Shown: positions 23,938 through 57,808, counted from the first letter of the stretch. The stretch is DNA of 64,000 nt from an uncultured SAR86 cluster bacterium (GCA_902605165.1 CACLBJ010000004.1:33874-97873), one strand, 5' to 3'. Numbers and translations are program-made. The notes: generated from the letters alone by a model not told the origin.

Positions 23938-23972
23938 TAAGTTACAAAAAAAATTCTTAAAAATATAAAAAA

Positions 23973-24026: not shown

Positions 24027-24086
24027 CTATTATAAATATAAAACGTATAATCAAAGCTTCAATGAAAAGAATAATTTTTGAAAAAT

Positions 24087-26445: not shown

Positions 26446-26517
26446 TAATATTATTTATATAAATTATTTCCATCAAGTTGCTTCTTGCATAATAGCTTTA
26501 AGTTTTTTTATAAAATA

Positions 26518-28852: not shown

Positions 28853-29902
28853 ATGAAGATTGGTAAAAAACAAATAGGTCCTAATCATAAACCTTTCATA
28901 ATTGCAGAGGTTGCTCAAAGTCATGATGGTAGCTTGGGACAGGCTATGGCATTCATTGACATTGCTGCAGACTGTGGTGCAGATGCAATAAAGTTTCAGA
29001 CACATATAGCTGAAGAAGAAAGCACTCCTGATGAGCCTTGGAGGATAAAATTTAGTCAACAAGATGATACCCGTTTTGAATATTGGGAACGCATGTCATT
29101 TCCTAAAGACTGGTGGCTGAAGCTAAAGGAGCACGCTGAAGAAAAAGGATTAATTTTTTTAAGCTCACCTTTCTCACCCATGGCAGTATCTTGGCTAGAT
29201 GATATCGGTATAGAGGCATGGAAAATTGCATCAGGCGAAGTATTCAATGAGAATTTGTTATCTCATATAGAGGCTACCAAGAAGCCAGTAATTTTATCCT
29301 CTGGATTAAGTAGTTTTTCAAAATCTAAAGAGCTTATTGAGAGGTTCGAATCTAAAAATATACAGGTATCTCTTCTTCATTGCACAACGATATATCCAAC
29401 ACCGCCTGAAGAAGTAGGATTAAATGTTTTTAAAAAAATGAGAAATGAATTTCATGACGCTATTCCAATAGGTCTTTCAGACCATTCCGGCACAATAACT
29501 CCATCTGTTATAGCAGCATATATGGGCGCATCTATTATTGAAGTTCATCTGACAATGCATAAGAAAATGTTTGGACCTGATGTTTCATCTTCTTTAGATC
29601 CAAAAGATTTTTTAGAGTTAGTAAAATGTGTTCATTTCGCATCAAAAATGGGCCAATCTTCCGTTAAAAAATCTAATCAATTAGATGATCTCAAAGAAAT
29701 AAAAAAAACATTTGGTCGATCATTAGTCTTCAATAAAGGCTTATTAGCTGGACATACTATTAAATCAGGAGATATAGGCTATAAAAAGCCAGGGGGTGGA
29801 TTGCCATATTCAGAAAAAGATTTTTTTGTAGGCAAAAAATTGCTGCAAGATGTACCATGTCATGAAAAATTAACATATCTTCATGTATCGGATACCAAAT
29901 AA
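28853..29902 (+). CDS. neuB: N-acetylneuraminate/nonulosonate synthase
   Basis: IIAEVAQSHDG, AIKFQT, KIASGE, LHCTTIYP, GLSDHS, IEVH and a C-terminal SAF-like domain (KKPGGG). Confidence 0.92.
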   Translation: MKIGKKQIGPNHKPFIIAEVAQSHDGSLGQAMAFIDIAADCGADAIKFQTHIAEEESTPDEPWRIKFSQQDDTRFEYWERMSFPKDWWLKLKEHAEEKGLIFLSSPFSPMAVSWLDDIGIEAWKIASGEVFNENLLSHIEATKKPVILSSGLSSFSKSKELIERFESKNIQVSLLHCTTIYPTPPEEVGLNVFKKMRNEFHDAIPIGLSDHSGTITPSVIAAYMGASIIEVHLTMHKKMFGPDVSSSLDPKDFLELVKCVHFASKMGQSSVKKSNQLDDLKEIKKTFGRSLVFNKGLLAGHTIKSGDIGYKKPGGGLPYSEKDFFVGKKLLQDVPCHEKLTYLHVSDTK

Positions 29903-31056
29903 TGAAAAAGAAAGTATTAGTTTGTATTACAGCTCGTCCAAGTTATTCAAGAATCAGAACAGCAATTCTAGCTCTTAATGATAATCCTGAAGTCGAAGTA
30001 CTTGTATTGGCTTCTGGCTCAGCTTTATTGGATCGATATGGAAGGGTGGTAGATTTAATTAGAAAAGATGGGATTGAAGTTGTTGAAGAACTTCATACTT
30101 TTGTTGAAGGAAATGACTTAATAGGCATGGCATTAACTACAGCATCAACAATTGAGGCTACTTCAAGAGCGATTGTTAGAATATCTCCTGATATTGTTGT
30201 AACAATTGCAGACAGATACGAAACTCTAGGCACAGCAGTAGCTGCCAGCTATTGTGGCTTTCCCTTAGCTCATATCCAGGGTGGAGAGATTACAGGAAAT
30301 ATTGATGAAAGGGTACGTCATGCAGTCACGAAACTTTCAGATATTCATTTGGTTGCAAATTCTGATTGTAAAGAAAGAATTATTAGAATGGGAGAAGATG
30401 AATCTAACATATTTATTACTGGCTGCCCATCTCTAGATATTGTTCATGAGAGCAATGAATTAGATATTGAAGATGTTAACGAAGCAGTTAGTTTAAGTGG
30501 GGTAGGTGCAGAATTTGATATAAATAAAAAATTTATCGTTGTAATGCAGCATCCAGAAACCGATAGTTATGATAAAAGCTATGATCGAATGATAAAAACT
30601 TTAGAAGCAGTCGATGCTATTGGCATTCCCCCCTTAATTTTTTGGCCAAATGTTGATGCTGGGTCTGATGCAACCTCAAAAGCTATAAGAGTTATGAGAG
30701 AACGGGGAGTTTTAAAGAATGCAAGATATATTAAAAATCTAGAAAGTAAATTATTCCTGAAATTATTATCTTTGTGCCATTGTTTAGTTGGTAATTCGTC
30801 TGTTGGAATTAGAGAATCTTCATTTATGGGCGTACCTACAGTAAATATTGGTCGAAGACAAGATGGCAGACAATCTTCTGATAATGTAATGTATGTCGGC
30901 TGGGATTCAAATCAAATAAAGAATGCAATCGATCATCAGATACAAAATGGTAAATATGAAATCAGCAATATATATGGTGATGGATTTTCTGGAAAAAAAA
31001 TTGCGGATATTTTAATGCAAGATCATTTTTCTGAATCAAAAAGATTTGTTGATTAA
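29902..31056 (+). CDS. neuC: Hydrolysing UDP-GlcNAc 2-epimerase
   Basis: ADRYE, HIQGGEITGNIDERVRHAVTKLS, WPNVDAG, GNSSVGIRE, NIGRRQ. Confidence 0.92.
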   Translation: MKKKVLVCITARPSYSRIRTAILALNDNPEVEVLVLASGSALLDRYGRVVDLIRKDGIEVVEELHTFVEGNDLIGMALTTASTIEATSRAIVRISPDIVVTIADRYETLGTAVAASYCGFPLAHIQGGEITGNIDERVRHAVTKLSDIHLVANSDCKERIIRMGEDESNIFITGCPSLDIVHESNELDIEDVNEAVSLSGVGAEFDINKKFIVVMQHPETDSYDKSYDRMIKTLEAVDAIGIPPLIFWPNVDAGSDATSKAIRVMRERGVLKNARYIKNLESKLFLKLLSLCHCLVGNSSVGIRESSFMGVPTVNIGRRQDGRQSSDNVMYVGWDSNQIKNAIDHQIQNGKYEISNIYGDGFSGKKIADILMQDHFSESKRFVD

Positions 31057-31128
31057 AGTGTCTAACTAATCACTTTAGATTCAAATATCTATGCATTGTA
31101 TAATTTTATAAATTTTTGGGGCAAACTT

Positions 31129-31983
31129 ATGGTCAAGTACACAGGCGATAATGAAGAATGGAATAAAAACTGGCAATCTCGAAGCGAGGCTAATTACATT
31201 CATTGGACAAAAGATGATCCAGTTAATCAAATTCAATTAGCATTTAGGAATCATTGGGAGCTTTTTAATACCTTTATGAGCTCTAAATTATTTAATAAAG
31301 GTAAAAGAGTTTTAGAAGTAGGTGCCGGTCGAGGTAGCCTATCAGCATACTTTAGTGATGCTGGTTATGACTGTACTTTGTTAGATCTTTCGCCTGATGT
31401 GATCGAAATTGCAAAAAATATTTATTCTTCAAATGATCTTAAAGCTAACTTTGTAGTCGGAGACGCATACGACATGGACTTTGAAGATAACTCTTATGAT
31501 GTTGTTTTTTCTATAGGAGTATTTGAACATTTTGAAGATATTGTTACTCCAATAAAAGAACAAGTTCGTATTCTCGATAAAGGAGGATTATTTATTGCAT
31601 ATATTGTTCCTGAGTATCAAGATAATGTTCAAAAAAAATATAATTGGATTAATGAATTATTAAAGGGGTATGAAAGTAATCTAAAAACAGATACTAACAG
31701 TCAATCAAAAGAAGAAGTTTATAGATCAGATCGTTGGTCAGAAAAATATTTACCAGTAATGAAACAAATGGGCCTTTCTGGCATTTCATCTTGCGGTACC
31801 TATCCACTTCCTATGATATCCCACTCAATAGAATTCCCATTTTCATTAATGCCAGAAAAAAGTGAACTTGCTTTAGTTAGACATTTTAAAGAAATGCTAT
31901 CTAAAAACACTAAGTATGATCATCCATGGATGTGTGAAGAAGGATATGGAAATTCATTCGTCGTTTGGGGATACAAAGATTGA
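31129..31983 (+). CDS. Class I SAM-dependent methyltransferase
   Basis: VLEVGAGRG, VGDA and YDVVFSIGVFEHF motifs. Sits between neuC and neuA. Likely ATG 31129. Confidence 0.85.
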   Translation: MVKYTGDNEEWNKNWQSRSEANYIHWTKDDPVNQIQLAFRNHWELFNTFMSSKLFNKGKRVLEVGAGRGSLSAYFSDAGYDCTLLDLSPDVIEIAKNIYSSNDLKANFVVGDAYDMDFEDNSYDVVFSIGVFEHFEDIVTPIKEQVRILDKGGLFIAYIVPEYQDNVQKKYNWINELLKGYESNLKTDTNSQSKEEVYRSDRWSEKYLPVMKQMGLSGISSCGTYPLPMISHSIEFPFSLMPEKSELALVRHFKEMLSKNTKYDHPWMCEEGYGNSFVVWGYKD

Positions 31984-32669
31984 AATATCTCTTTATAATT
32001 CCTGCAAGAGGCGGTTCAAAAGGAATACCAAAAAAAAATATATTTGAAATTAATGGGCATCCATTAATATATTATTCAATTAGTGCTGCATTAGAAGTTA
32101 AAAAGATTATTCAAGACTCAAAAGTTATCGTTTCGACAGATAATGAGGAAATCAAAGAAGTTAGTATTAAATTTGGTGCTGAAGTGCCTTTTATTAGACC
32201 GAAGGAATTATCTGATGATAAGTCTAAATCTATTGAGTATGTAAATCATGCCATTAAATATTTTGAAGAAAATGGAAAGCTTTTTGAGCATGTTGTGATA
32301 CTGCAACCCACTTCACCTCTAAGAACATTTGAAGACATATTCGCATCTATCCAAACTTACGAAACGCATAAAGCTGATTCATTAATTTCGGTTTACGAGG
32401 AGCAAACAATCAATGAAAAAATTATCTATATGCAAGATGGTTTATATTGCAAGCCCGCAGATCAACTTCATAATGCTGGGATACGAAGGCAAGAGGATGA
32501 ATCATTTCTAGTTAGAAACGGCGCAATATATATTACAAAAATAGATTTTTTCAAAGAGGCTCAGTCTTTAGTTTCAAGTAAGCCTTTAATTTATGTAATG
32601 CCTAAATCTAAATCAATTAATATTGATACTCCTGAAGATATGCTAATGGCTGAAAAATTACTTATTTAA
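31965..32669 (+). CDS. neuA: CMP-N-acetylneuraminate synthetase
   Basis: IPARGGSKGIPKKN, VSTD, LQPTSPLR, NGAIY, IDTPED. The start may be TTG 31980. Confidence 0.92.
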   Translation: MGIQRLKYLFIIPARGGSKGIPKKNIFEINGHPLIYYSISAALEVKKIIQDSKVIVSTDNEEIKEVSIKFGAEVPFIRPKELSDDKSKSIEYVNHAIKYFEENGKLFEHVVILQPTSPLRTFEDIFASIQTYETHKADSLISVYEEQTINEKIIYMQDGLYCKPADQLHNAGIRRQEDESFLVRNGAIYITKIDFFKEAQSLVSSKPLIYVMPKSKSINIDTPEDMLMAEKLLI

Positions 32670-32722
32670 TTTTTTTTAAAATCCCATCAAAAATCTATCT
32701 TTAAGAATGTTAATATGCACCT

Positions 32723-33634
32723 ATGTTTTTAATCAATGAACCAAATGAATTCCCAGAAGAGGCAATTAAAAAATTAAGAAATTTTGGAGAAGTTTTTTTT
32801 AAAGATAATAAATATGACCCAAATGATATAAAAGTTTTATTTGTTCGTTTAAATGAAATAATTGATGAAAATTTTTTAGAAAAATTCCCATTATTAACTC
32901 ACATTGTATGTCCTACAACTGGTCTTAATCATCTAGATCTAAAATTTATAAAGTCAAATCAAATTAAGTTAATATCCTTGAAAGAAAAATTTGAATTTTT
33001 AGAGGATATTCATGCTACTGCCGAACATACTATTGCAATAACTCTTGGCCTTTTACGTAAGATTCATCTCGCAACAAGATCTGTAGAAAATGGGGTATGG
33101 GATAGATATCCATATAAAGGCAATGAAATTTACTCCAAAAAAATATTAATAATTGGTTACGGAAGAATTGGTAAAAAGGTCGCGAGAATCTTTAGTGCCT
33201 TCGGAGCAAAAATATCTGCATATGATACCGATATAAATAAAATTCCATCAGAGTATGCCTGCAATTTTGAGCGTTCAATGAAGACTGCTGATATTGTAAG
33301 CATTCATATTCCTTATAACGATGAAAATAAATTATTTATCAATAAAAAATTAATTAAATCAATGAAAAAAGAATCTATTTTAATAAATACCTCGAGAGGT
33401 GAAGTTATTGATCAAGATGCACTTGTAAACTCTTTATTAAACCGAGATATTTCTGGAGCAGCATTGGATGTTTTATGGGATGAGCCCGATCCAATTAATA
33501 AAAAATTAAAAGAATTAGTTTTAAATGCAGGAGAAAGAATACTAATAACCCCTCATATAGGTGGTTTTACTAATGAGTCTCTTGTAAAAGTTGAAGAGTA
33601 TGTAACAGATCTTTTAATAGAAGACATTACTTAA
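32723..33634 (+). CDS. D-isomer-specific 2-hydroxyacid dehydrogenase (SerA-like)
   Basis: TTGLNHLD, ATAEHT, GYGRIG, INTSRGEVID, AALDV, TPHIGG. Confidence 0.88.
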   Translation: MFLINEPNEFPEEAIKKLRNFGEVFFKDNKYDPNDIKVLFVRLNEIIDENFLEKFPLLTHIVCPTTGLNHLDLKFIKSNQIKLISLKEKFEFLEDIHATAEHTIAITLGLLRKIHLATRSVENGVWDRYPYKGNEIYSKKILIIGYGRIGKKVARIFSAFGAKISAYDTDINKIPSEYACNFERSMKTADIVSIHIPYNDENKLFINKKLIKSMKKESILINTSRGEVIDQDALVNSLLNRDISGAALDVLWDEPDPINKKLKELVLNAGERILITPHIGGFTNESLVKVEEYVTDLLIEDIT

Positions 33635-33651
33635 AATTATCTTACAAAGAT

Positions 33652-35022
33652 ATGAAAATTTTTTTATCCAATAACTCAAACAAATTTCTATATCTACCTA
33701 TTGAAATCTTTACTCGAGAGTTTCATTCGAAGATTTATCTAGCTCATGAAGCGGTTCAAAAAGGGTGGACTGTTTTAGTTGGACCTAAGTATGACATAAA
33801 TCCAATGATGAAATATTTGCCATCAGGAATATATTCCGGAATAGGTTTTCATAAATCTGCAGCTAAACTTGCAAAGAAAATCAAATCTTTTGGACACAAA
33901 GTATTCTCTCAAGATGAGGAAGGCCTTGTAAGACTATCTCCAGAGTTTTATAAAGAATATAGAGTTGATGAGAATATTTTTGATAATTCAGATCTAATTT
34001 TTTGTTGGGGAAAAAGGCACCAAGAAATAATGGAAGCTATATTCAAAAAATCAAGCAAAATTAGAAGTATTGGTAATGGCAGAGTTGATATACTAAGCTC
34101 AAAGTTAAAGAAAATCTTTGAAAAAGATGCTGAGCTTATTAAGAAAGAAAATGGTAATTTTATTCTAATTAATGGTAATTTTGGCTCAGCAAATCATTTT
34201 TCAGGTAAAGAAAATTTTTTAAAAGAGCTTGAGTCAAGAGGTTGGCTTGATACTGAACAAAAAAAAGAATATCAACTTAATAGAATTGAATTTCAAAACA
34301 GTATTTTTCTAAAAATGATGAGCTTATCAGTTGAAATTGCAAAAACTGGAAAGAAAATTATAGTTAGACCTCACCCATCAGAAAATTTAAATAAATGGAA
34401 AGAATTTGTATCTGATTACACTGATAATATTAAGATTATTAGATCAGGAAATGTTATTCCTTGGATCATGGCATCCAATTACTTAATTCATAATGGATGC
34501 ACTACAGCAATAGAGGCAGTTTTAATGGGAAAAGATGTTATTTCTTTTCGTCCATTTAAAAATAAAAGCGTTGAATCAATTTTGCCTAATGCAATTAGTT
34601 CTTGCATGGAAACTCAAGAGAGTGTCTTAAACTATTTAAAAAATGATAAAAATAAATATAGCTTAAATGATGAAGCCTTAAAAATTCTAAATGACAATAT
34701 AGAACAAAACTTTCAACATGAAGATGCAACTTCTAGAATTATTAATATGATTGAGAAATTAGAAATTAAAAAAAGTAGGCCGACTTTCTTATCGAATCTA
34801 CTTAATGAGATCCTTTTTAGATTAAATCTACTAAAAATGAAAATATCAAGGAAAATTTATAATAGTAACTTTCAATATGAGCTTATAAAATGTCCTCCTT
34901 TAGCAAATACGGAAGTAACAAAGCTTCTTACTGAAATAGCAGACATAAAATCAGAAGATAAAAATTTTGAAGTATGTAATTTTAATAAACATAGTATAAT
35001 CATCCAACCAAAAAATAACTGA
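33652..35022 (+). CDS. Surface carbohydrate biosynthesis protein; candidate GT-B sialyl/nonulosonyl transferase
   Basis: E..RE..SK N-terminus, DEEG, CWG, GNGRVD, RPHPSE and HNGCTTAIEA motifs. Adjacent to the neu genes. Confidence 0.62.
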   Translation: MKIFLSNNSNKFLYLPIEIFTREFHSKIYLAHEAVQKGWTVLVGPKYDINPMMKYLPSGIYSGIGFHKSAAKLAKKIKSFGHKVFSQDEEGLVRLSPEFYKEYRVDENIFDNSDLIFCWGKRHQEIMEAIFKKSSKIRSIGNGRVDILSSKLKKIFEKDAELIKKENGNFILINGNFGSANHFSGKENFLKELESRGWLDTEQKKEYQLNRIEFQNSIFLKMMSLSVEIAKTGKKIIVRPHPSENLNKWKEFVSDYTDNIKIIRSGNVIPWIMASNYLIHNGCTTAIEAVLMGKDVISFRPFKNKSVESILPNAISSCMETQESVLNYLKNDKNKYSLNDEALKILNDNIEQNFQHEDATSRIINMIEKLEIKKSRPTFLSNLLNEILFRLNLLKMKISRKIYNSNFQYELIKCPPLANTEVTKLLTEIADIKSEDKNFEVCNFNKHSIIIQPKNN

Positions 35023-35034
35023 GTCAGACTTTAT

Positions 35035-35832
35035 ATGAGTGATTTATCTAATCTTAAAGAAAAAGTTAGAAGTTTTGCAGAGATTCAACCCTGGAATCAT
35101 AATTTTGTTCTTCCAGATGGAACAGAGACGAGGCCAGGAAAATTTAGTTCTTTTGGTAAGAATATTAATAAATTAAAAAGATTAGAACCAATACTAGACT
35201 CTATCGATATTTCAGGAAAACGCGTACTCGATTTAGGTTGCAATGAAGGCTTTTTCTCAATTAATCTTGCTGAGAGAGGTGCTATCGTTCATGGTATCGA
35301 TGCAGACTATCACAGAATAGAGAAAGCAAAGTTTATTAAAGATGTAATTGCTCAAGATTATGAGATTAAATACGAATGTAAAAATTTTCTTAAAGATGAA
35401 GATGGGCTTGAAAGTGCAGACGTTATTTTGTGTTTAGGTTTTTTGCATAGAGTGCCTGATCCAATTACTGTTATCCAAAAATTAGCTGAACTTCAAGGGA
35501 TAATAATATTTGAGTGGAAGGCTGAATATTCTGCCAGCAATAAAAATCCTGCAGCTATTTTTTCTAGTCAACCTATTAACAAAATTGATAGCTATGGCAC
35601 TGAATACTGGCTTTTAAGCATTGATGCTTTGAAGAAAATTCTTAAACGTTATGGCATGAACTATACATATCCAGTACCAAATAAGGGAGGCAAACGTGAA
35701 ATGCTTGTTGCATCAAAATATGAAATAGATGGAATTAGTGTTCAAAATGAAAGATTCCGACTTTTTCTTGGTTTTATAAGATTACTGAAAGAATCTTTGA
35801 AAGCTCTTATAGCCTTGATCAGCGCAAAATAA
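35035..35832 (+). CDS. SAM-dependent methyltransferase (CmoB/DUF1698-like)
   Basis: PWNHNF, GKRVLDLGCNEGFFS, LCLGFLHRVPDP. Confidence 0.78.
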   Translation: MSDLSNLKEKVRSFAEIQPWNHNFVLPDGTETRPGKFSSFGKNINKLKRLEPILDSIDISGKRVLDLGCNEGFFSINLAERGAIVHGIDADYHRIEKAKFIKDVIAQDYEIKYECKNFLKDEDGLESADVILCLGFLHRVPDPITVIQKLAELQGIIIFEWKAEYSASNKNPAAIFSSQPINKIDSYGTEYWLLSIDALKKILKRYGMNYTYPVPNKGGKREMLVASKYEIDGISVQNERFRLFLGFIRLLKESLKALIALISAK

Positions 35833-36545
35833 TGCTTAAAAGAATATACTCAAAATTAAACTTATCTAAGCGTTATGAGATATATAAAAAAGAAAAAAGC
35901 ATAAAAAGTGCTCATCATAATCATCGTAAACAGTTCTTAGATGACTACAAAGATATTGATAATATCATAGAAGGTTTTAGGGCTGGTGGAGGTCTAAAGC
36001 ATGATTTTCAAAGCTATAAGTTATGGGAACTAAAAAAATATTTAAGACTAAATAGTCCTGAAAGCATTCTTGAGTTTGGAAGTGGATCTTCGTCATCAAT
36101 ATTTGCAAAATATTCTTTTCAGAATAAAGTTCCTTATACAAGCTATGATGAAAGCAAGCATTGGATTGATAATACTAAAAATATTTTAAATAATAATCTT
36201 AATGATAATATCCGTTTTGTTCATGCCGATCGAACTTTTAATTTTGACGAAGAGATTACAACGGTTAACTACAATATTGACATAGATGGGTTTTTTGATT
36301 TTGTGCTTATTGATGGTCCATCATTACGCATAAATAATATTCGAAGAAAGGATGCTGTGAATGCTGATATTCTTAAATTATCAGATTTGCCTAAGATTAT
36401 ACTCATTGATGGAAGGAAAAGTACTTTTGAGTATTTAGTTAAAAAGCTAGGAAGCAAATATAAAGCTTTTCCATCTAACCTTTTTACTAAGACTTTATTA
36501 AAAAGCGGCTATGATTATTTTTCTCGTTTAGAGTTAATTGAGTAG
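35832..36545 (+). CDS. Putative methyltransferase
   Basis: ILEFGSGSSS and FDFVLIDGP, typical of small sugar O-methyltransferase-like proteins. Confidence 0.62.
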   Translation: MLKRIYSKLNLSKRYEIYKKEKSIKSAHHNHRKQFLDDYKDIDNIIEGFRAGGGLKHDFQSYKLWELKKYLRLNSPESILEFGSGSSSSIFAKYSFQNKVPYTSYDESKHWIDNTKNILNNNLNDNIRFVHADRTFNFDEEITTVNYNIDIDGFFDFVLIDGPSLRINNIRRKDAVNADILKLSDLPKIILIDGRKSTFEYLVKKLGSKYKAFPSNLFTKTLLKSGYDYFSRLELIE

Positions 36546-36580
36546 TTTTGTTATAAATTAATATGTCAATAAATTTTTAA

Positions 36581-38143
36581 ATGGCTTCTGTAACAATTGA
36601 GCAAACCCTTAATAATATTGTTGTGACATGGGTAAAGCGTTTTCTTGATATATTAGTAGTTGTAATAACCGTGCCTATAATTACCAGACATTTTGGTTTG
36701 GAGTTGATAGGTATATGGTTACTAGCTACACAACTGACACAGCATATTTATCTCTTAGAACTAGGAATAAATGTTAGCTTAACAAGATTTCTTTCGCGCT
36801 ACAGGGCAAAAAATAATTTAAATTTAGCCTCACAATACTTGTCTACCTCTATTTTGTTTTTGATTTCAATAGGTTTGTTGATAATTATTGTGTCACCAAT
36901 AATTGCTTTAATTTTTCAAACTATATTTTCTTTACCTCCCACTATGAATAAAGAAATATTCTGGCTAGTACTAATAACAACATGCATCACTGGTTTAAAT
37001 TTATCTTTCAGAACAGGAGTGGGTATGCTTTCCTCAATACATAAGTTTGATACTCTTGCATTTTGGGAGACAATGGCACTTTTAGTTAGATTAATTCTTG
37101 TTTGTCTTTGTTTTTATTGGTTTGATCCAAATTTTTTAGTTTTAGCATTAATCACATATATACCTCCACTGATATCTAATCTTATAATCTTCTTAACAGG
37201 TAAAAAATTAAATCATGACTTATCTATAAGTAAAAAACTGATATCTAAACAAGTTATAAAAGATATGACCTCAGTTGGAGGATCAGCATTAGTAATTACT
37301 TTAGCAGCTTTAATTGCAAGACAATCCAGTTCAATTCTTGTTGGTTGGGAGTTAGGATATGAGCAAGTTGCTTCGTTAACTTTCCCTGTTATGGTGGTCT
37401 TTGCAATAATGCCTTTCATAAGTATCGGAGCTACCTTGCTTTCCCCAGTTGCCAGCCAACTGGATGCTGAAAATAAATATGAATCTTTATATGCAATTTA
37501 TTCTTTAATTGGAAATTATGTATTTTTACTTGCTTTAATAATTCTATTGGGATTCTATTATATGGGTTTTTATATTTTTGATTTTTGGTTGAGTGGCCCA
37601 AAAATAGAGGTAAATTCTATTTTTGATATTTCAAGAAATACTATCATCATATTTTCAGGTGTAGCTATTGCAGTTCCTGGCTTTATTCTAAGACAAATCC
37701 TTATTGCAGTTGGTAATCATTGGAAAGTAGCAATTAGTGAAGTTATTGGAGCAATTATTGGGATTTTGATCGGTTACTTTTTAATGACAAGTTTTGAGTT
37801 AGGAACATCTGGAATGGCAATAGGCATATCTTTAGCATTCATAATCCGAGGAGCAATTTTAATAACTTTTCAGGCGGCTAGATATTTTTCTGTTTCGTAT
37901 TTCAAATTATTGTTTGACTGCATTACAAAACCATTATTTATATTAATTTCCTCCATAGTTTTATCAGAAATATTACTATCTTTTTTAAATATAAATAATT
38001 ACATTCTTATCAATATTTTATCTTTTGTTACCATACTTACATGCATGCTAATAGGATTTTGGATATTTTTACTTCATCAAGATCACAAACAAATGATATT
38101 TCAATTTTTTAAAAAAAGATTAAAACATTTTAGAGCCTACTGA
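36581..38143 (+). CDS. wzx: Oligosaccharide flippase
   Basis: 520 aa with a dozen or more hydrophobic segments and a MOP-family N-terminus (VPIITRHFGLELIGIW...LELGI). Confidence 0.82.
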   Translation: MASVTIEQTLNNIVVTWVKRFLDILVVVITVPIITRHFGLELIGIWLLATQLTQHIYLLELGINVSLTRFLSRYRAKNNLNLASQYLSTSILFLISIGLLIIIVSPIIALIFQTIFSLPPTMNKEIFWLVLITTCITGLNLSFRTGVGMLSSIHKFDTLAFWETMALLVRLILVCLCFYWFDPNFLVLALITYIPPLISNLIIFLTGKKLNHDLSISKKLISKQVIKDMTSVGGSALVITLAALIARQSSSILVGWELGYEQVASLTFPVMVVFAIMPFISIGATLLSPVASQLDAENKYESLYAIYSLIGNYVFLLALIILLGFYYMGFYIFDFWLSGPKIEVNSIFDISRNTIIIFSGVAIAVPGFILRQILIAVGNHWKVAISEVIGAIIGILIGYFLMTSFELGTSGMAIGISLAFIIRGAILITFQAARYFSVSYFKLLFDCITKPLFILISSIVLSEILLSFLNINNYILINILSFVTILTCMLIGFWIFLLHQDHKQMIFQFFKKRLKHFRAY

Positions 38144-38176
38144 CAGTAATTTGTAAAAAGTATTCAGGAGCATTTT

Positions 38177-39202
38177 ATGAAAATACATATAAAAAGATGG
38201 ACATTCAAAAAAGGTGATCATTTATGGCTTGAAGATACTAAGCCAGATATGTACAAAGATAATAATGTTTGCGATAGTTGCGGCTCACAAATGAAAGAAA
38301 TAGCAAAAATTGTTAATGATAATAATTCTATAGGGTTGGTTACAGGGCTATGCCCAGAATGTGGGTATGTTAAAAGAACTCGTAATCTATCAGAGGACTG
38401 GTATGCAGATCATTTTGCAAAACGATGGCTTGTCGGAAGTAATCATGAGATAAGCGATCAGCAAATCTTAACTGAAGATAATTATATCTTTAATAAACTT
38501 AAAAAATATGTTCAAAAAAATGGGAATATTCTTGATGCTGGCTGCGGTATAGGTCAAAGATTGCTACCTTTTCATAATAATGGATATAAGGTATTTGGTT
38601 TTGATCCATCTGAAGAAAGGACAAAGATTGCATCAGAGGTAATGAAAAATATTGAGGTCAATTCAGCTGAGAAATACCTACTTGCTACTGATCAAGTATT
38701 TGACTTAATTTTTTTCTTTAATGTTTTACAGTTTGTTGAAAACCCTTTTGATGTTATTAAGAAGGCTAGCATGAAACTTAGGCCGGATGGTTTCTTATTT
38801 TTTAGCGTTGGCCAGTTCTATAATGATGCAAATTTTTGCCAGTTTTCTCATATCGGACTTATAAGATCTTTTCTCAGCTTGTTTACAATGACTGAGCTCT
38901 TTAAAGAATTAGACTTATGGCCTGTTGAATATTCTGAATCTCCAATGGAGATTATTCTTCAAAAGGGTGTAAAGGGACCCCAATCTATGAAAATTATAGA
39001 AAATGCTAAAAAAATAACTGAAAAAGATATTAATAAGTATGTAAAGAAAACACTTCAAATGAATAGGTTAAAATTCTTTAGAAGAACAAATATAAAATAT
39101 AATGGTAGAAAAATTACTATTGAAAAAAATAGAAGTTCCTCTAATTTACTTCCTGTTAATTTTAATCATGATGATCATGATCTCCCAATTCTATTAAAGT
39201 AA
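38177..39202 (+). CDS. Methyltransferase with N-terminal Zn-finger
   Basis: CDSC...CPEC, then ILDAGCGIG and FDLIFFFNVLQFVENP. Confidence 0.78.
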   Translation: MKIHIKRWTFKKGDHLWLEDTKPDMYKDNNVCDSCGSQMKEIAKIVNDNNSIGLVTGLCPECGYVKRTRNLSEDWYADHFAKRWLVGSNHEISDQQILTEDNYIFNKLKKYVQKNGNILDAGCGIGQRLLPFHNNGYKVFGFDPSEERTKIASEVMKNIEVNSAEKYLLATDQVFDLIFFFNVLQFVENPFDVIKKASMKLRPDGFLFFSVGQFYNDANFCQFSHIGLIRSFLSLFTMTELFKELDLWPVEYSESPMEIILQKGVKGPQSMKIIENAKKITEKDINKYVKKTLQMNRLKFFRRTNIKYNGRKITIEKNRSSSNLLPVNFNHDDHDLPILLK

Positions 39203-39262
39203 GAGCGCATTTAATTATTTTATTGTATTTTGATATACTGGCAGCAAATTTCAGGGCTAAAG

Positions 39263-40171
39263 ATGATCGATTCAATTTATAACAAAATAGGTAGTTATAG
39301 TAAAAATGGTGATATTTTTACGAGAAACATTGGTTATAAATTAAGAAAAACTATTAGATTAAGTGATTTATATAAGAGAAAGATACCATCATCCATCCTT
39401 GAAAATGATTATGGAATTAATCTAAAAGATAGTAAAGGATATTGTTCTTTGGACGGTTTAAAATATTTAGAGCATACTCAGGACATTATTGACATTACTA
39501 AAAGAGAATTTTCTAATCTCGACGTAGAGTCAATTGATTGGAAAGATAAAGATCAATTGTATACTGGTGTTTTAAATGATTATTTTATAGATAGTAACTC
39601 TCCTTTCTTGAAGTTTGTGTTACAGGAAGAGTTAATATTTCCAATAATAAAATACTGTGGATTTATTCCTGTTTTATCGTATATTGGTGGATGGTATTCA
39701 CCTGGAAAAAAGACAGAATATTCAAATAGTCAATTATTTCATTGTGACCAGGCTGATATTCGTCAGGTTAAGGTTTTTGTAAACTGCAGTGAAATTTCTG
39801 AAATAGATGGCCCTGTGAATCTTATAGATGCAAAAAACTCTGAAAAAATAAAGGCTACATTAAATTACGATTACAGTGATGAGGGACAATGCTTACCAGA
39901 TAAAGTGATTGAGAAACTTATACCAAAAGACAAATGGATTCCTCAAATTGGTAAAGAGGGAACAGTTTCATTAAGTGACACAAGTAGGTGCTTTCATTTC
40001 GGCAGTCGATTATCAGACAACTCAAATGACAGATTGATGATTATGTTTCAGTTTTTATCTCCATGTGCATTTACTCTCCCAGCTAAGTTAAATCAAAAAT
40101 TACCCCTTTCAGATATAAGTGCTTCAGGATTAAATAAATTAGAAAAGCAAATCTTAGGTGTAGGGATATAG
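39263..40171 (+). CDS. Fe(II)/2-oxoglutarate dioxygenase, PhyH-like
   Basis: SQLFHCD (HxD), VKVFV...DGP, DTSRCFHFG (distal His) and downstream R. The ORF track start is 39230. Confidence 0.72.
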   Translation: MIDSIYNKIGSYSKNGDIFTRNIGYKLRKTIRLSDLYKRKIPSSILENDYGINLKDSKGYCSLDGLKYLEHTQDIIDITKREFSNLDVESIDWKDKDQLYTGVLNDYFIDSNSPFLKFVLQEELIFPIIKYCGFIPVLSYIGGWYSPGKKTEYSNSQLFHCDQADIRQVKVFVNCSEISEIDGPVNLIDAKNSEKIKATLNYDYSDEGQCLPDKVIEKLIPKDKWIPQIGKEGTVSLSDTSRCFHFGSRLSDNSNDRLMIMFQFLSPCAFTLPAKLNQKLPLSDISASGLNKLEKQILGVGI

Positions 40172-40184
40172 ACCATAACCATTA

Positions 40185-40925
40185 ATGCATTTCCAATCTT
40201 CAAATTATTATTTAAAGATTTTTTCTCATTACAAAGTAGCTAGATTTTATTTTGGTAATTTTATAAGATTTTTAAGTAAGAAAAAATTTCAAAAATCTAT
40301 TAGTCCCTCAGAGGCTGTAACAATATTTGGAGAAAATTTTTCTAAGCATGGTAATCATTTTATTATTAATTTTTTAAATGAGTATTCTTTAAATAATAAA
40401 ATTGATTACATTGAAAGTTCACTTGGAAAGTTCCATAAACAATTTTGTCCAAAGACTACTGAAGAAGCCTTGGGAGTTTCAACTAAAGGAAATGGATTGA
40501 GATTATTCAATTATCCTTGGGGAGTGTTTGGGCGACAAAGATCTATAAAGAGAAAAGACCCAAGAAATTCTAGATTCTGCGGACCAAGCACTGAAAAATT
40601 CATTATCGATGAAGCCAAAAGTATTATTAAATTATATGTAAAAATCAAAAAAGATGGTTATCAGCCGACAAAATATCCTAATTCATTTATTCAAGGTGTT
40701 TGGATGATAAAAAAAAATGGAGAAAAAAGATTTGTAGTGCTTCAAGGAAATCATAGAATGGCTGTTCTATCTTATTTGGGATACAAAAGCATTGATGTTA
40801 GATGTGATATGTTCCCAAACAAATATATTAAAGAAAAAGATTTAAATAGTTGGGTTAATGTCAAATTAAATAATGTATCATCTGAAAAAGCTTTGGAGAT
40901 ATTTAATTCATTTTTTAAGTATTGA
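40185..40925 (+). CDS. Hypothetical protein with ParB/sulfiredoxin-like motif
   Basis: KIKKDGYQP...FVVLQGNHRMAVLSYLG matches the ParB/Srx GxxRxxA arginine patch. No HTH is evident. Confidence 0.55.
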   Translation: MHFQSSNYYLKIFSHYKVARFYFGNFIRFLSKKKFQKSISPSEAVTIFGENFSKHGNHFIINFLNEYSLNNKIDYIESSLGKFHKQFCPKTTEEALGVSTKGNGLRLFNYPWGVFGRQRSIKRKDPRNSRFCGPSTEKFIIDEAKSIIKLYVKIKKDGYQPTKYPNSFIQGVWMIKKNGEKRFVVLQGNHRMAVLSYLGYKSIDVRCDMFPNKYIKEKDLNSWVNVKLNNVSSEKALEIFNSFFKY

Positions 40926-42274
40926 ATCAAATGAAAGTCACTTCAAATATATATATATGGACATATCTTTTCCTAGCTTTCTTTGGTATTGGATTTCTAG
41001 CTTTACCAGGTGGAGCAATGCTCCAAAAAATATCAATTTCAGCACTATGTATATTAATTCTATTGGCTCAAGGATTAAAAATTAAATTACCTCATGGGCT
41101 TAAAAAATATTTTCTAATATTAATTATTTTGACAATCTTTAGCGCCATATCTTCTCTTGTTTACTCTAATTCAATCATGTTTATGATTCTTGTTACACAA
41201 AAATATTTATTTTTAATCGTTTCTTTTATAGCCGCTTCTCAAATATTCTCAATACTTAAAAATAAAAATTTCAAAACTCTAGATAAAATTATTGTAACCC
41301 TTGTGATAACTCAATTTATTTTTGTAATACTAAAATTTAGTATATTAGGTGAAATTCAAGAAGGATTCTTAATTGGTTCAATGAGTCATAATGCTGGTCA
41401 GTTAGGATTTTTGTTTCCTGCAATTATGATTCCAATTGTGCTACTACGCTTTTTTAATAAAAATATTAAATTAGCAATAATACTTATTACCATGCTAATT
41501 TTATTTGCAATCTTAAATGAAAAGCGCGCTATTTTTTACTTGGGACCTTTAATAATATTTTTCTCATTAATTAGCTTTCTCACTATAAAACTGTCTTTAT
41601 CAAACCTATTAAAGTCAAGTGCCGTATTTTTATTAGGGTTATTTTTTTTGAGTTATTTTACATCAAATATTGATAGTCTTTCCGGCGAAGAAGGCAGTAT
41701 AGAAACCTCAGGTAATCAAATTGAATATTTAATAGATTATGGAATTGCTTATCTTACGATGGATTATGGTGGCGATCTTCAGAGCGATTATGCACAGGCC
41801 ATTTTTGATAGAAATACACAATTAGGTAGAGTTATTTTATGGATTAGAGGCTTAGATCTATATTTTTCTTCAAATATTTATTATCAAATTTTTGGCCATG
41901 GTTTTGGTTACATCACTCCTTCTGAATATATAAATCCTAAAGATATTATCTTTCAAAAACTAGGTTTTAGAGGAGCAATCAGCGGGGCTTTAATGAATAT
42001 AATTGAAGGGGGGTTAATAAGCTTTACTTTATATAGTTTCTTAGTCTTAATGCCGTTAACTCATCTATATAAGCGATATCAAGATACAAAAAGTAATCTA
42101 AATCGTTCTTCAATAAAAAGGATTAAGATTTTAACTATTGTACAATTTGTTTTTATTTTTGATTTCTTTTTTTATTCCACCATTTTGTTTTCTACAAGCC
42201 CTTTACCTCTTCTATATTTTATCCAACTTTTTTTTATATACATGCCTGATGATAAATCAATAAATGCAACATGA
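40922..42274 (+). CDS. wzy: Putative O-antigen polymerase
   Basis: Very hydrophobic multi-TM protein with NEKRA, a large periplasmic loop and IFGHGFG. Located among the glycosyltransferases. Confidence 0.7.
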   Translation: MNQMKVTSNIYIWTYLFLAFFGIGFLALPGGAMLQKISISALCILILLAQGLKIKLPHGLKKYFLILIILTIFSAISSLVYSNSIMFMILVTQKYLFLIVSFIAASQIFSILKNKNFKTLDKIIVTLVITQFIFVILKFSILGEIQEGFLIGSMSHNAGQLGFLFPAIMIPIVLLRFFNKNIKLAIILITMLILFAILNEKRAIFYLGPLIIFFSLISFLTIKLSLSNLLKSSAVFLLGLFFLSYFTSNIDSLSGEEGSIETSGNQIEYLIDYGIAYLTMDYGGDLQSDYAQAIFDRNTQLGRVILWIRGLDLYFSSNIYYQIFGHGFGYITPSEYINPKDIIFQKLGFRGAISGALMNIIEGGLISFTLYSFLVLMPLTHLYKRYQDTKSNLNRSSIKRIKILTIVQFVFIFDFFFYSTILFSTSPLPLLYFIQLFFIYMPDDKSINAT

Positions 42275-43401
42275 AGAATATTAAAGAAATATTGGAACTT
42301 GCCAATCATTTCCTAGACCAGCTTGAAACTAAAAATGGTTATAAGTTATTTATAAGGTCAGATTGTTCACCCTATGCCAGATGCTTTGTTATTTTTACAA
42401 AATCTTTATTGAAAGATAATTTATGGCTAGACTCTCGCAAGACTCGCTTAATTAGTGATCTTAATGATGATCTATATGACTTTTATAATATACAGTTAGG
42501 TAAAACTATTGATATCAAATTTGATAAACCATTTCTACAACTTTTTTGCTTTACTTTAAGTGCTCTCAATATTTTAAATGGCTCCTTAAGTAAAAAAAAT
42601 TTAAAAATTTTAGAATTTTTCTTAAATCTTAAAGTTGAGGAATTAATGATTGCTCGTTCAGTAAATTTAGGATTGCCCGGAAGCGGTAATTATTCTATGT
42701 TTTTAGCTGTTTTAAATATTTATGCTCAAGAAAAATTGGATGAAGATAGGTCTTTGGAGATAAAAAAATGGCTCAAATTTAATTTGAATTCTGTAAATGA
42801 TAACGGCTTCTGGGGCAATTTTCCTAAAATAAATCATCTACAGTTTCAAAACGGTTATCATCAATACGAAATCTTTGAATATTTAGCTTTCCACAAGGCG
42901 CCATGGAACCAGGCTGCAAAAAGCACTTTAACACTAGCAGATCAGATTGGACATTTTTCTCCATATCCTGGAGGTGGAGGTTGTTATGATTTTGATGCAA
43001 TTTTTCTTTTGACTAGTGATTTCGTTGATGATATTGGTCAAAATATGATTTTAAATAAAAGCCTTGGGACAATTATTTCTGAGCAGAATAAAGATGGCGG
43101 ATTTTGCGAATCTAAACTTCTGAGGAATCATAATAATTGGCCTAGACTTCTTTCACTAGTTTCTCATATTCACAGTCAGCCATCTCATCTTAAACTTTCT
43201 TCTTTAAGAATTGGCCTTAATTTATTTCGTTTTAAGCATAAGACAGTTTCTACACATTGGACCTCAATTGATAGAAAGTGGAATGAGTCAAATGCTTGGG
43301 ATACATTTTTTCGTCTTTCAGCAATTTTTAGAATTTATAGTTATTTAGGTTTACCAGAAAAAGAATTGTTCAAAGTGAATCACTTTCCTGGCATTGGATA
43401 A
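42271..43401 (+). CDS. Hypothetical alpha/alpha-toroid protein (prenyltransferase/squalene-cyclase repeat-like)
   Basis: QW-like repeats VNDNGFWG and EQNKDGGF, plus PGGGGCYDFDA and AWDTFFRL. Confidence 0.5.
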   Translation: MKNIKEILELANHFLDQLETKNGYKLFIRSDCSPYARCFVIFTKSLLKDNLWLDSRKTRLISDLNDDLYDFYNIQLGKTIDIKFDKPFLQLFCFTLSALNILNGSLSKKNLKILEFFLNLKVEELMIARSVNLGLPGSGNYSMFLAVLNIYAQEKLDEDRSLEIKKWLKFNLNSVNDNGFWGNFPKINHLQFQNGYHQYEIFEYLAFHKAPWNQAAKSTLTLADQIGHFSPYPGGGGCYDFDAIFLLTSDFVDDIGQNMILNKSLGTIISEQNKDGGFCESKLLRNHNNWPRLLSLVSHIHSQPSHLKLSSLRIGLNLFRFKHKTVSTHWTSIDRKWNESNAWDTFFRLSAIFRIYSYLGLPEKELFKVNHFPGIG

Positions 43402-43410: not shown

Positions 43411-44574
43411 ATGAAAAAACTTCTGTATATTTCACCATCCTCATTTCCTTCACAAGCAGCTAATTCAACTCATGTATTATTGCAAACTGAGGCATTGTCA
43501 AAGATATATTCAGAGGTAAGAGTCATAGGACTATCTTCAACGAATGAGAAGATATCCAAAATTTATAATAGATTACAAAAACATTATTCAATAGATTTAA
43601 AGAAAATACAGTTTTCTTTATGCAAAAGCCTTGGTGGATATGCAGAAACACTTACAATTGCAATCTTCTCTATATGGTTTGTTCTATCACTAAGAGATCA
43701 TCAGATTATTACAAGAAATTTATATGCAGCATTTTTTATAATCTTTTTAAGAAACGACCGCTTTATATATGAAACTCATACTGTAGAGACTGGATTTAGA
43801 AAATATATACAAAAATTTATTATTAAATCCAGTAAAGTAAAAGTTGTTGTAATATCTGATAGCCTCAAAAAATTATTATTAAGAAGATATCAAATTGATC
43901 AAGATAATTTTTATATTCTTCATGATGCTGCCCGATCAGGACTTTCAACAAAATTAAATAAAAATGATATCCCACCAGAATTATTATCAAAATATGAATA
44001 TAAAATAGGGTATTTTGGTTCTCTTTTACCTGGACGAGGAATCGATATTATAGAAGAAATTGCAAAAATATTTCCAAGTTCATTATTTTTGATTTATGGA
44101 CCAAAAAATCAGAATACTGAATTTGAAAATCGAGCAATTAAGCCCGGTTCAAATATTTATTTTGGTGGTTTTCTGAGGCATGCTGAAATCCATAATACAA
44201 TGCTGGCATGTGATATTTTACTTATGCCATATCAGGAAAAGGTCTTCATAGATATGAAAGGAACTGATACTTCAAAATGGATGTCGCCAATGAAAATGTT
44301 TGAATATATGGCAACAGGCAAGCCGATTATTTCCTCAGATCTGCCCGTTCTTCGAGAGGTTTTGAAAGATGGCGAAAATGCTATCTTAACAAATCCCTCT
44401 GAGGTATTAAGTTGGGAGGAATCAATTCTAAAAGTTATTAACAATCCATCAATGGCTTCATTGATTGGCAAAAATGCAAGAGAGAAATATATTCAAAAAT
44501 ATAATTGGGATGAAAGAGCAAAAAAATTATCACATATCCTTAGTGCTAAAAAAACAAATCAATTTAGAAAATGA
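43411..44574 (+). CDS. Glycosyltransferase family 4
   Basis: YFGSLLPGRG and SPMKMFEYMATGKPIISSDLP. Confidence 0.9.
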   Translation: MKKLLYISPSSFPSQAANSTHVLLQTEALSKIYSEVRVIGLSSTNEKISKIYNRLQKHYSIDLKKIQFSLCKSLGGYAETLTIAIFSIWFVLSLRDHQIITRNLYAAFFIIFLRNDRFIYETHTVETGFRKYIQKFIIKSSKVKVVVISDSLKKLLLRRYQIDQDNFYILHDAARSGLSTKLNKNDIPPELLSKYEYKIGYFGSLLPGRGIDIIEEIAKIFPSSLFLIYGPKNQNTEFENRAIKPGSNIYFGGFLRHAEIHNTMLACDILLMPYQEKVFIDMKGTDTSKWMSPMKMFEYMATGKPIISSDLPVLREVLKDGENAILTNPSEVLSWEESILKVINNPSMASLIGKNAREKYIQKYNWDERAKKLSHILSAKKTNQFRK

Positions 44575-45727: not shown

Positions 45728-46561
45728 TTGATAAATATATCAATAGTTACATATTTTACGCCAATCAATGATGTCATCAATGCTGTTAAAACATGCTCTG
45801 ACAGTGAAGTATCAAATGCAATTTTTATAATAGATAACTCTAGTAAAGATATACTAAGTAACCAACTTAAAAGTTTTGAAAAGGTTAATTATATACATAA
45901 CCCATCAAATCCAGGATATGGCGCTGCTCATAATATAGCTATAAGAAAATCTCTTGCTGATAATATTGAATATCATTTAGTTTTAAATGCTGACGTGATT
46001 TTTGATTCTAAAATGCTAGAGTTGATGCTTGAGTACGCAAAAAAAAATAAAAATATTGGTATTTTGGCTCCAAAGCAGTTCTATGAAGATGGCTCTATCT
46101 ATTGCAGCAGGAAACTTTTACCAACACCAAAAGATATGTTTTTTAGGGCTTTTTTGACAAAATTCATAAAAACAAAATCAAATGACATTTTTCAACTAGA
46201 AAAATTTGGATATGAGACTGATATTAAAGTTCCCTATGTCTCAGGAGCATTTATGTTTATAAATACAAGTGCTTTATTGGATGTGGGCTTGTTTGATGAG
46301 CGTTTTTTTATGTATCCTGAAGATATTGATATAAGCAGACGAATTGCTGAGATTTATGATGTACTATTTTGTCCAAAGTTTACAATAATCCATAAACATG
46401 GAGCAGCAAGCAAAAAAAGTTTTAAAATGTTTTTAATACATACATACAATATGATTTTATACTTTAATAAGTGGGGTTGGGTTTTAGATAAAGGTCGAAG
46501 TAATCTAAATAAACTTACTCTTAATCAAGACCATTCTCTTAAACAAGCTAAGAATTTATGA
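45728..46561 (+). CDS. Glycosyltransferase family 2, probable rhamnosyltransferase (WbbL-like)
   Basis: [38 protein letters not shown]. Directly upstream of the rml genes. Confidence 0.82.
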
Positions 46562-47616: not shown

Positions 47617-47618
47617 AT

Positions 47619-57796: not shown

Positions 57797-57808
57797 TTTA
57801 AAAACTAG

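Follow-up and report, generated by a model that had tools for sequence, protein, structure and literature searches.

A stretch of 64,000 nucleotides from one strand of an uncultured SAR86 cluster bacterium genome (GCA_902605165.1, CACLBJ010000004.1:33874-97873; the whole stretch is called the window here) carries, at positions 28,853–43,401, a block of nonulosonate (NulO) genes that forms part of a 26.6-kb Wzx/Wzy glycan island (24336-50934). The region is a mosaic of modules recurring in at least 10 phyla: a distinct clade of the NulO synthase NeuB with a D-2-hydroxyacid dehydrogenase (2HADH); a predicted CMP-ulosonate transferase followed by a methyltransferase and a protein of the ParB/Srx fold; and an alpha/alpha-toroid protein followed by two GT4 glycosyltransferases and a GT2 glycosyltransferase. 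Of interest in this NulO-bearing island are three uncharacterised modules that many bacteria share: the 2HADH specific to the NeuB clade, the transferase-linked methyltransferase-ParB/Srx pair, and a pair formed by an Fe(II)/2-oxoglutarate (2OG) oxygenase and the methyltransferase MT4. With moderate confidence we read the region as a horizontally acquired Wzx/Wzy island that makes a modified N-acetylneuraminic acid (Neu5Ac)-type NulO glycan by means of recurring modules, a reading that builds on its gene content, its protein folds, the recurrence of the modules and their linkage to NulO genes.

Nonulosonic acids stand at the tips of bacterial surface glycans, where phages, grazers and immune systems encounter them. 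Their modifying enzymes are poorly known, according to the Discussion of PMC5378307. In the window, 14 open reading frames (ORFs), all present on the + strand and closely packed, fill the block exactly, neuB being the first and the toroid ORF the last, and 26 ORFs lie head to tail on that strand across the island (Table 1). Five island ORFs lack a family match, and most others are named by Pfam and NCBIfam. The gene and fold calls of the original prediction, made by a model from the DNA sequence, all hold (NeuB, NeuC, NeuA, 2HADH, the transferase, four methyltransferases, the PhyH-type and ParB/Srx proteins, Wzx and the Wzy-like protein), that of the toroid protein on family-level evidence.

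The nonulosonate genes and the adjoining dehydrogenase

The NulO genes of the window point to a neuraminic-acid-type (Neu-type) product. NeuB falls below the cut-offs of both the NeuB_NnaB equivalog model TIGR03569 (279.3 bits, cut-off 399.65) and the PseI model TIGR03586 (222 bits, cut-off 340) and is 27-32% identical to Neu, legionaminic (Leg) and pseudaminic (Pse) references, with 29% identity to E. coli K1 NeuB; its best match in the PDB is Neisseria meningitidis NeuB at 196 bits, compared with 139 bits for a PseI. NeuA scores 145.8 bits against the PseF model TIGR03584, below the cut-off of 205.7, and orthologues of the methyltransferase MT1 (at least 200 bits) adjoin NeuA, 2HADH or NeuC. 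A Leg or Pse pathway would place a 4,6-dehydratase, an aminotransferase and an N-acetyltransferase beside the synthase, a combination found neither in the island nor in the assembled genome: Pfam and NCBIfam searches revealed no aminotransferase or acetyltransferase in the cluster, as the original prediction had stated, and in the 83%-complete genome no DegT-type aminotransferase match exceeds 26 bits and no PseB/LegB-type dehydratase lies outside the island, the Polysacc_synt_2-like matches being epimerases/dehydratases of the same contig only. The partners of a Neu-type synthase, NeuC and a CMP-transferase with neither dehydratase nor aminotransferase, are what this 83%-complete genome holds, and it contains one NeuB.

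The original prediction had left the placement of NeuB to a phylogeny. In a tree of 23 synthases (the window NeuB, 16 homologues from related loci, E. coli K1 NeuB, two Leg and three PseI references), the window protein falls into a clade of nine with support 100/99, apart from every Neu, Leg and Pse reference, and seven of the nine members have an adjacent 2HADH gene. Since the tree holds one proven Neu reference and the best PDB match is N. meningitidis NeuB, this clade may be a deep branch of Neu-type enzymes. Both Leg references in the tree come from plasmids, NZ_CP029359.1 (L053) and NZ_CP139727.1 (L054), on which PGAP gives the name 'neuB: N-acetylneuraminate synthase' to a gene accompanied by a LegC aminotransferase, NeuC and an acetyltransferase, in L054 also by LegB; these synthases are therefore legionaminic-type and the label is an unsafe guide to the sugar made, and we rejected it as a mark of a Neu5Ac synthase. 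At two loci a DHDPS-family (NanA-like) aldolase gene takes the place of NeuB beside NeuC, MT1 and 2HADH, lying between 2HADH and the cytidylyltransferase gene (Peteryoungia aggregata, L038:2050-3183; a Hyphomicrobium metagenome-assembled genome (MAG), L041:1778-2665). This suggests an aldolase-based synthesis of the same acid, and the substitution would fit a nine-carbon acid derived from N-acetylmannosamine (ManNAc).

The 2HADH is specifically linked to this NeuB clade. Its gene lies within 5 kb of 12 of the 15 NeuBs that score at least 250 bits to the window NeuB, versus 3 of 25 at 100-250 bits, a split picked after the tree had been seen, and in many loci it stands between neuB and the cytidylyltransferase gene. 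The best PDB match of the enzyme is the phosphoglycerate dehydrogenase 1wwk, and its close PDB relatives, which use phosphoglycerate, glycerate, lactate or glyoxylate, all act at the carbon next to the carboxylate; 2-ketoaldonate reductases of the 2HADH family reduce the 2-keto group. Gene position and family chemistry would both suit an alternative in which NeuB and 2HADH make no glycosidic sialic acid, the 2-keto group being reduced to give a 3-deoxy-nononic acid that serves as a non-glycosidic pendant group. We regard this as improbable: a cytidylyltransferase and an HP-motif transferase of the CMP-ulosonate type are always present and their chemistry needs an anomeric C2, and there is no ligase or acyltransferase in the island for attaching such an acid. 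The lack of an acyltransferase likewise leaves the acylated glycan envisaged by the original prediction without support.

The transferase and the enzymes that follow it

The protein encoded after 2HADH is best read, from its sequence, as a predicted CMP-ulosonate transferase, on the strength of a match to the BFO_1060 family, two conserved motifs and homology to PF05159 proteins. It scores 82.7 bits (E 2.8e-23) against NF046086, the BFO_1060 family, below the cut-off of 200, and is thus a member of the broad TIGR04396 family outside the Tannerella subfamily. A D/E-D/E-G motif (E89-E90-G91) and an HP motif (R239-P240-H241-P242) are invariant in 11 homologues; both motifs are named for genetically proven Tannerella Pse/Leg transferases in PMC5420450, which also describes BFO_1060 as the strain 92A2 homologue of Tanf_01245, a gene whose deletion leaves the Tannerella O-glycan without its terminal pseudaminic-acid derivative. 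Many related loci encode, instead of the TIGR04396 protein, a PF05159 (KpsC/KpsS-type) protein of about 520 residues, and the two types align over 290 columns that include the HP motif (hhalign probability 94%, E 9e-8). The window transferase has no PF05159 match of its own in Pfam, and a phmmer search of the PDB gave nothing meaningful (best E 0.054, eIF3a).

A methyltransferase and a ParB/Srx-fold protein recur as a pair behind such transferases. In a metagenome scan that returned 69 ParB/Srx loci, an MT2 gene immediately precedes the ParB/Srx gene in 42 of 53 loci, mostly with overlapping stop and start codons, and a TIGR04396- or PF05159-type transferase gene lies no more than 2.5 kb upstream in 21 of 36. 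The ParB/Srx protein has 68 database relatives, in a family with 968 cluster representatives at E <= 1e-10. Its model (pLDDT 92) matches sulfiredoxin best in Foldseek (E 4.6e-4), and the Foldseek-independent VIA comparison ranked ten ParB/Srx-fold chains at the top, among them sulfiredoxin, SbnI, free serine kinase, KorB, PadC, ParB, Osa and Spo0J, with modest Z scores of 5.4-3.5 (next, 2.7) over about 80-100 of 246 residues. SbnI and SerK are small-molecule kinases of this fold, and ParB and KorB bind CTP. The motif Q187-G188-N189-H190-R191 is invariant in 36 family sequences and may correspond to the nucleotide-binding G-x-H-R-type motif of Srx and ParB.

Gene pairing and fusions argue that MT2 and the ParB/Srx protein may work together. 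When 16 long ParB/Srx forms were compared with Pfam, three were found to fuse a methyltransferase domain to the ParB/Srx domain (P0309 with an N-terminal TPR region as well), ten (about 557-645 residues) carry TPR or TPR-like (ANAPC3) repeats before ParB/Srx and lack a methyltransferase domain in Pfam, one places ParB/Srx between leading TPR repeats and a trailing sugar-transfer ATP-grasp domain, and two have no Pfam domain. The stretch before the ParB/Srx domain aligns with MT2 motif I in the two proteins compared, at a probability of 92% for P0309 and 61% for P0262, a TPR-only form. Many of the proteins P0262-P0348 are ParB/Srx-family members of about 590 residues with N-terminal TPR repeats and a methyltransferase-like middle; P0288 (747 residues) has a 'sugar-transfer associated ATP-grasp' region instead. 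A predicted MT2-ParB/Srx complex scored 0.00, gave no verdict and is counted neither way. Because the pair trails the transferase with Neu-like and Leg-like upstream synthase genes alike, its target is likely a feature common to both sugars, either the CMP moiety or C1-C4.

The oxygenase, whose start we set at the second methionine to match a 302-residue database form, shares the PhyH-type fold by its structure model without sequence-defined PhyH membership: it matches no Pfam family, the PhyH model included, at E values up to 10, and none of its 25 database relatives carries a Pfam domain. An HxD...H triad (H160, D162, H245) is invariant in 23 homologues, and the AF2 model (pLDDT 92) has 346 Foldseek matches at E <= 0.001, led by proline hydroxylase, FtmOx1, EctD, GriE and HygX at E ~1e-9. 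MT4 is adjacent to a close oxygenase homologue in seven of eight cases, and distant homologues are located between the transferase and MT2. A six-sequence profile of MT3 matches SAM methyltransferases in the PDB, YjhP among them (E 3.5e-4). At one oxygenase-EpsG-toroid-GT4 locus in an Opitutia MAG (L016:1974-6403), PPDK-like, class I amidotransferase-like, inositol-monophosphatase-like and nucleotidyltransferase genes lie upstream, a combination that we take to resemble the Campylobacter O-methyl-phosphoramidate (MeOPN) genes; we considered a system of that type for the window and ruled it out, as the window has no such gene set.

The remaining genes of the block are better explained by assembly of the glycan. 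Twelve hydrophobic segments and an orthologue (L019:7251-8825, 220 bits) that passes PF01943 (33.4 bits, cut-off 28.2) mark ORF 36581-38143 as a probable Wzx, although the window protein itself has no Pfam match. ORF 40922-42274 is a Wzy-like candidate by topology and position; its language-model (Atlas) neighbours are O-antigen-ligase/Wzy_C clusters (0.99), neither it nor five orthologues match any Pfam family, PF04932 and PF14897 included, and hhalign found no homology between its family and the EpsG proteins of related loci (probability 0.3%). The toroid protein has 746 homologues, with PF00432 in 12 of 120 among the matches listed; 12 of 29 aligned members match PF00432 (best E 6e-8) and the window protein itself does not, while the family profile matches a terpene cyclase in the PDB at E 0.0087 and an Atlas search returned mainly the protein's own unannotated cluster. 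The original prediction had counted about eight enzymes without an assigned step, which is too many, given a candidate CMP-ulosonate transferase, Wzx and Wzy-like assembly proteins and a toroid that goes with the glycosyltransferases. For the same reason there is little to recommend the view that essentially all eight act one after another on the nonulosonate to yield a heavily methylated, hydroxylated and phosphorylated sialic-acid derivative. That view can appeal to a marine contig (L064) on which the block recurs nearly gene for gene in near-identical order, to a second locus (L019) that repeats it in part, and to the position of the whole set between neuA and the glycosyltransferase genes. 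Against it, the modules also occur apart and in varied combinations, and few positions on Neu5Ac are free to accommodate four methylations together with a hydroxylation and a phosphorylation.

Recurrence of the modules and competing readings

A scan with the toroid protein, one genome per species, returned 38 loci from at least 10 phyla, including Pseudomonadota, Bacteroidota, Verrucomicrobiota, Nitrospirota, Gemmatimonadota, Cyanobacteriota (Synechococcus, Prochlorococcus), Planctomycetota and Acidobacteriota. Culturable carriers of the cassette exist as well, for instance Ahrensia marina ac1 (L044) and Peteryoungia aggregata DSM 1111 (L038). The toroid gene has a GT4a homologue behind it in 32 of 37 loci, and the toroid travels with the GT4-GT4-GT2 backbone set whether neu genes are present or not. 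Where 8 kb of upstream sequence was available (28 loci), 2HADH was found in 11, MT1 in 6, ParB/Srx in 5 and the oxygenase in 3. Of 26 long ParB/Srx loci, 19 contain NeuB or NeuC, and the toroid protein occurs in 16 of 24 ParB/Srx loci; as a control, a hand count in the window's order found NeuB within 10 kb of 8 of 56 rmlA places. That order has a NeuB-family protein in 76 of 201 genomes and the toroid in 2, both with NeuB on the same contig. The order's other toroid genome (L059/L060, G135:C6) has the arrangement EpsG-toroid-GT4-GT4-small methyltransferase-GT2-rml, with a Leg-like NeuB/NeuC/NeuA set and a PF05159-type transferase about 20 kb upstream.

The accessory families thus recur beside NulO genes in many phyla, and the want of any co-occurrence, which the original prediction had named as the outcome that would undo it, is not what we found. 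Its proposal of an undescribed tailoring pathway survives in part: the co-occurrence is real and the families are uncharacterised, but the chemistry is deduced rather than seen, and a number of the enzymes belong to ordinary assembly. In the literature searched, supplements aside, we found no characterised member of these accessory families and no description of the cassette.

A simpler account, to which we give a lesser but real share of belief, is an ordinary variable O-antigen island in which the methyltransferases, the oxygenase and the ParB/Srx protein act on rhamnose, GalNAcA or GlcA or have unrelated roles, and their proximity to neu genes reflects shared islands. NulO synthases are frequent in the order anyway, no NeuB or NeuC was detected in 16 of the 28 long toroid-GT4-GT4-GT2 loci, and in many loci a further small methyltransferase gene lies between GT4b and GT2, remote from the neu genes. 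This account sits poorly with a 2HADH that tracks one NeuB clade, with MT1 orthologues placed among NeuC, NeuA and 2HADH, with the MT2-ParB/Srx pair behind the predicted CMP-ulosonate transferase, and with the higher frequency of NeuB/NeuC at ParB/Srx loci than at rmlA places.

Several points nevertheless weigh against a modified Neu5Ac-type glycan. NeuB or NeuC (at least 100 bits) occurs in 12 of the 28 toroid loci with 8 kb upstream, so the set is not NulO-specific, and with NeuB common and the toroid rare in the order, it is clear that a NulO cluster can do without these accessories. Ascertainment of the loci went through the toroid or ParB/Srx proteins, relatives among them are non-independent, and the rmlA control was drawn from a different sample; the 250-bit NeuB split, too, was chosen after the fact. 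The tree holds a single proven Neu5Ac synthase, that of E. coli K1, with N. meningitidis NeuB outside it. Chemistry next to the carboxylate, as in the 2HADH family, fits poorly with a product that can be CMP-activated, and O-methylation of rhamnose is common, so some of the methyltransferases may act on the backbone. Because the accessory enzymes have no characterised relative, the steps after NeuA, the substrates of these enzymes and their order are guesses.

A bolder reading, which we hold as a tentative possibility, sees two new ulosonic-acid chemistries widespread in environmental bacteria, marine Synechococcus and Prochlorococcus included: the product of the 2HADH-linked NeuB and the transferase-linked tailoring set. 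On this reading the NeuB clade and the 2HADH-fold enzyme could make a nonulosonate other than Neu5Ac, Leg or Pse, redox-altered or epimeric and often methylated, and the hydroxylase-methyltransferase and methyltransferase-ParB/Srx pairs would equip the sugar with methoxy and/or methyl-phosphate groups.

Island setting, proposed pathway and known systems

The island sits beside tRNA-Cys and tRNA-Leu genes at a hypervariable site in a small low-GC genome (about 1 Mb), and horizontal acquisition at this site is the best explanation of its presence. Identity to genus mates is 67-93% over the left flank (uvrC-pgsA-kdsD) and about 70% over the right one (infC-rplT-pheST); where a genus mate has both flanks on one contig, the gap between them spans 14.8-35 kb with differing contents, and in two genomes from another family of the same order about 2.5 kb separates the flank matches. 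A DNA search with the whole block against 40 relatives did not find it, returning just short chance-level matches. G+C is 0.28-0.30 over 32-46 kb, compared with 0.30-0.37 in the flanks. The region is a replaceable surface-glycan island, with escape from phages or grazers as its plausible role, and the phage-receptor diversification put forward in the original prediction is a reasonable reading of the variability at the site.

Table 1. Features of the glycan island and its left edge, in window coordinates
Feature	Position	Strand	Evidence
tRNA-Cys and tRNA-Leu, left island edge	23864..24173	+	ARAGORN
Wzz-type chain-length determinant	24336..25247	+	PF02706, 33.7 bits, above cut-off
UDP-glucose 6-dehydrogenase-like	25270..26445	+	UDPG_MGDP_dh domains; NF011631 527 bits, below cut-off 757
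NAD-dependent sugar epimerase/dehydratase	26485..27528	+	PF01370, E 1.5e-55; TviC-like match weak
TviB-like UDP-GlcNAc 6-dehydrogenase	27529..28800	+	NF011729 576 bits, slightly below cut-off 592
NeuB-family nonulosonate synthase	28853..29902	+	PF03102, 222 bits, E 7.6e-66
NeuC-type hydrolysing UDP-GlcNAc 2-epimerase	29902..31056	+	TIGR03568 354.6 bits, above cut-off 235.9
MT1, class I SAM methyltransferase within NulO genes	31096..31983	+	PF08241, E 8e-22
NeuA-type cytidylyltransferase	31965..32669	+	PF02348, 78.6 bits, E 8e-22
D-2-hydroxyacid dehydrogenase (2HADH)	32723..33634	+	PF02826, E 3e-48
TIGR04396 protein, candidate CMP-nonulosonate transferase	33652..35022	+	TIGR04396 330.8 bits, above cut-off 125
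MT2, methyltransferase	35035..35832	+	Pfam methyltransferase domains; clear class I
MT3, probable O-methyltransferase-like	35832..36545	+	single sequence weak, PF13847 E 0.0077
Wzx-type flippase	36581..38143	+	12 hydrophobic segments
MT4, zinc-ribbon and methyltransferase	38177..39202	+	PF13489, E 5.5e-15; clear class I
Fe(II)/2OG oxygenase, PhyH-like fold	39263..40171	+	AF2 model, Foldseek, conserved triad
ParB/Srx-fold protein, invariant QGNHR motif	40185..40925	+	AlphaFold model, Foldseek, VIA
Wzy-like polymerase candidate	40922..42274	+	11 hydrophobic segments, long loop at about residues 230-360
Prenyltransferase-repeat (alpha/alpha toroid) family protein	42271..43401	+	family-level evidence only; no predicted transmembrane segment
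Two GT4 glycosyltransferases	43411..45641	+	PF00534; conserved downstream of toroid gene
GT2 glycosyltransferase	45728..46561	+	PF00535
rmlB, rmlA, rmlC, rmlD (dTDP-L-rhamnose synthesis)	46558..49920	+	Pfam, E 1e-71 to 1e-97
NAD-dependent epimerase, last gene of the island	49924..50934	+	PF01370, E 4.6e-26

Further genes lie around the island. Between kdsD and the tRNAs (23068-23860) are two small ORFs, one of 135 residues with a weak APS-kinase/AAA_18 match and one of 130 residues with no family; neither has an NCBIfam match. A second polysaccharide-export set at 55523-60977 comprises a Wza-like protein of 757 residues with several SLBB domains, a YjbH-family protein and an Ig-like/cadherin-like surface protein, and two tandem carboxylesterase-family (PF00135) genes occupy 61385-63998, the second cut by the window end. 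On the same contig, just past the window's right end, a Glycos_transf_4 (WecA/WbpL-type) gene (G000:C4:99347-99823) is, apart from the presumed MraY, the sole candidate for an initiating transferase, and the assembly yielded no Bac_transf gene. The ORFs for PheS (52829-53554, 241 residues) and ribosomal protein S1 (16238-17545, 435 residues) are presumably shorter than their E. coli counterparts, which would fit a streamlined genome.

The island probably makes a modified sugar, and its genes can be arranged into a provisional pathway. NeuC would convert UDP-GlcNAc to ManNAc, which NeuB of the distinct clade would condense with phosphoenolpyruvate (PEP) to a Neu5Ac-type nonulosonate. The 2HADH, by NAD(P)-dependent redox chemistry, and MT1, by methylation, may alter the sugar before or around its activation by NeuA, and the TIGR04396 protein would move it from the CMP donor onto the repeat unit. 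Decoration of the ulosonate, or of the residue directly next to it, might fall to the MT2-ParB/Srx and MT4-oxygenase pairs. The oxygenase could hydroxylate an unactivated C-H bond, in the manner of KdoO or of Neu5Gc formation, for MT4 to methylate the new hydroxyl, and the ParB/Srx protein could bind a nucleotide for MT2, either ATP for a phosphorylation with methyl-phosphate logic like that of WbdD, or else the CMP-sugar's cytidine. The toroid protein, the two GT4s and the GT2 would build the backbone from UDP-GlcNAcA/GalNAcA, UDP-GlcA and dTDP-Rha, after which Wzx would flip the unit, the Wzy-like protein would polymerise it and Wzz would set the chain length.

The island points to three testable enzyme sets beside NulO pathways in at least 10 phyla, abundant ocean bacteria included. 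Should 2HADH and the ParB/Srx-methyltransferase pair prove to use the sugar as substrate, new nonulosonate structures and a new catalytic role for the ParB/Srx fold would follow, and these enzymes would serve as markers by which metagenomes could be read for surface-glycan chemistry; otherwise this is simply another variable O-antigen island.

In its early steps the system resembles the NeuC-NeuB-NeuA route of E. coli K1 and N. meningitidis, using the same three families with no 4,6-dehydratase or aminotransferase, but its NeuB clade carries a 2HADH and often a methyltransferase, neither of which is present in the K1 cluster. The predicted transferase is like Tanf_01245/TFUB4_00887/BFO_1060 of Tannerella forsythia in its NF046086 match and its D/E-D/E-G and HP motifs, and in PMC5420450 a methyltransferase gene adjoins the transferase there too; it would differ from the Tannerella transferases in using a Neu-type rather than a Pse/Leg donor and a Wzx/Wzy repeat unit rather than a protein O-glycan as acceptor. 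The KpsC/KpsS-type beta-Kdo transferases (PF05159, Capsule_synth) are homologous to the window family, but a Kdo donor is not indicated here.

The tailoring enzymes have parallels in logic. KdoO, an Fe/2OG Kdo 3-hydroxylase, and CMP-Neu5Ac hydroxylase (CMAH) hydroxylate an ulosonic acid residue or its N-acetyl group; the window oxygenase differs in having no Pfam match and PhyH-type small-molecule hydroxylases as fold neighbours, whereas CMAH is a Rieske enzyme. WbdD, the methyltransferase-kinase chain terminator of E. coli O9a that adds a methyl phosphate, also couples a methyltransferase to another domain, as neighbour or fusion in the ParB/Srx case, and the small-molecule kinases SbnI and free serine kinase among the ParB/Srx fold relatives recall its kinase. 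The MT2 profile matches the WbdD methyltransferase domain in the PDB (E 7e-9), a likeness generic to class I enzymes. The partner of MT2 has a ParB/Srx fold and not a protein-kinase fold, which places the pair outside the kinase-methyltransferase group, and WbdD serves an ABC-transporter system where the window has a Wzx/Wzy system.

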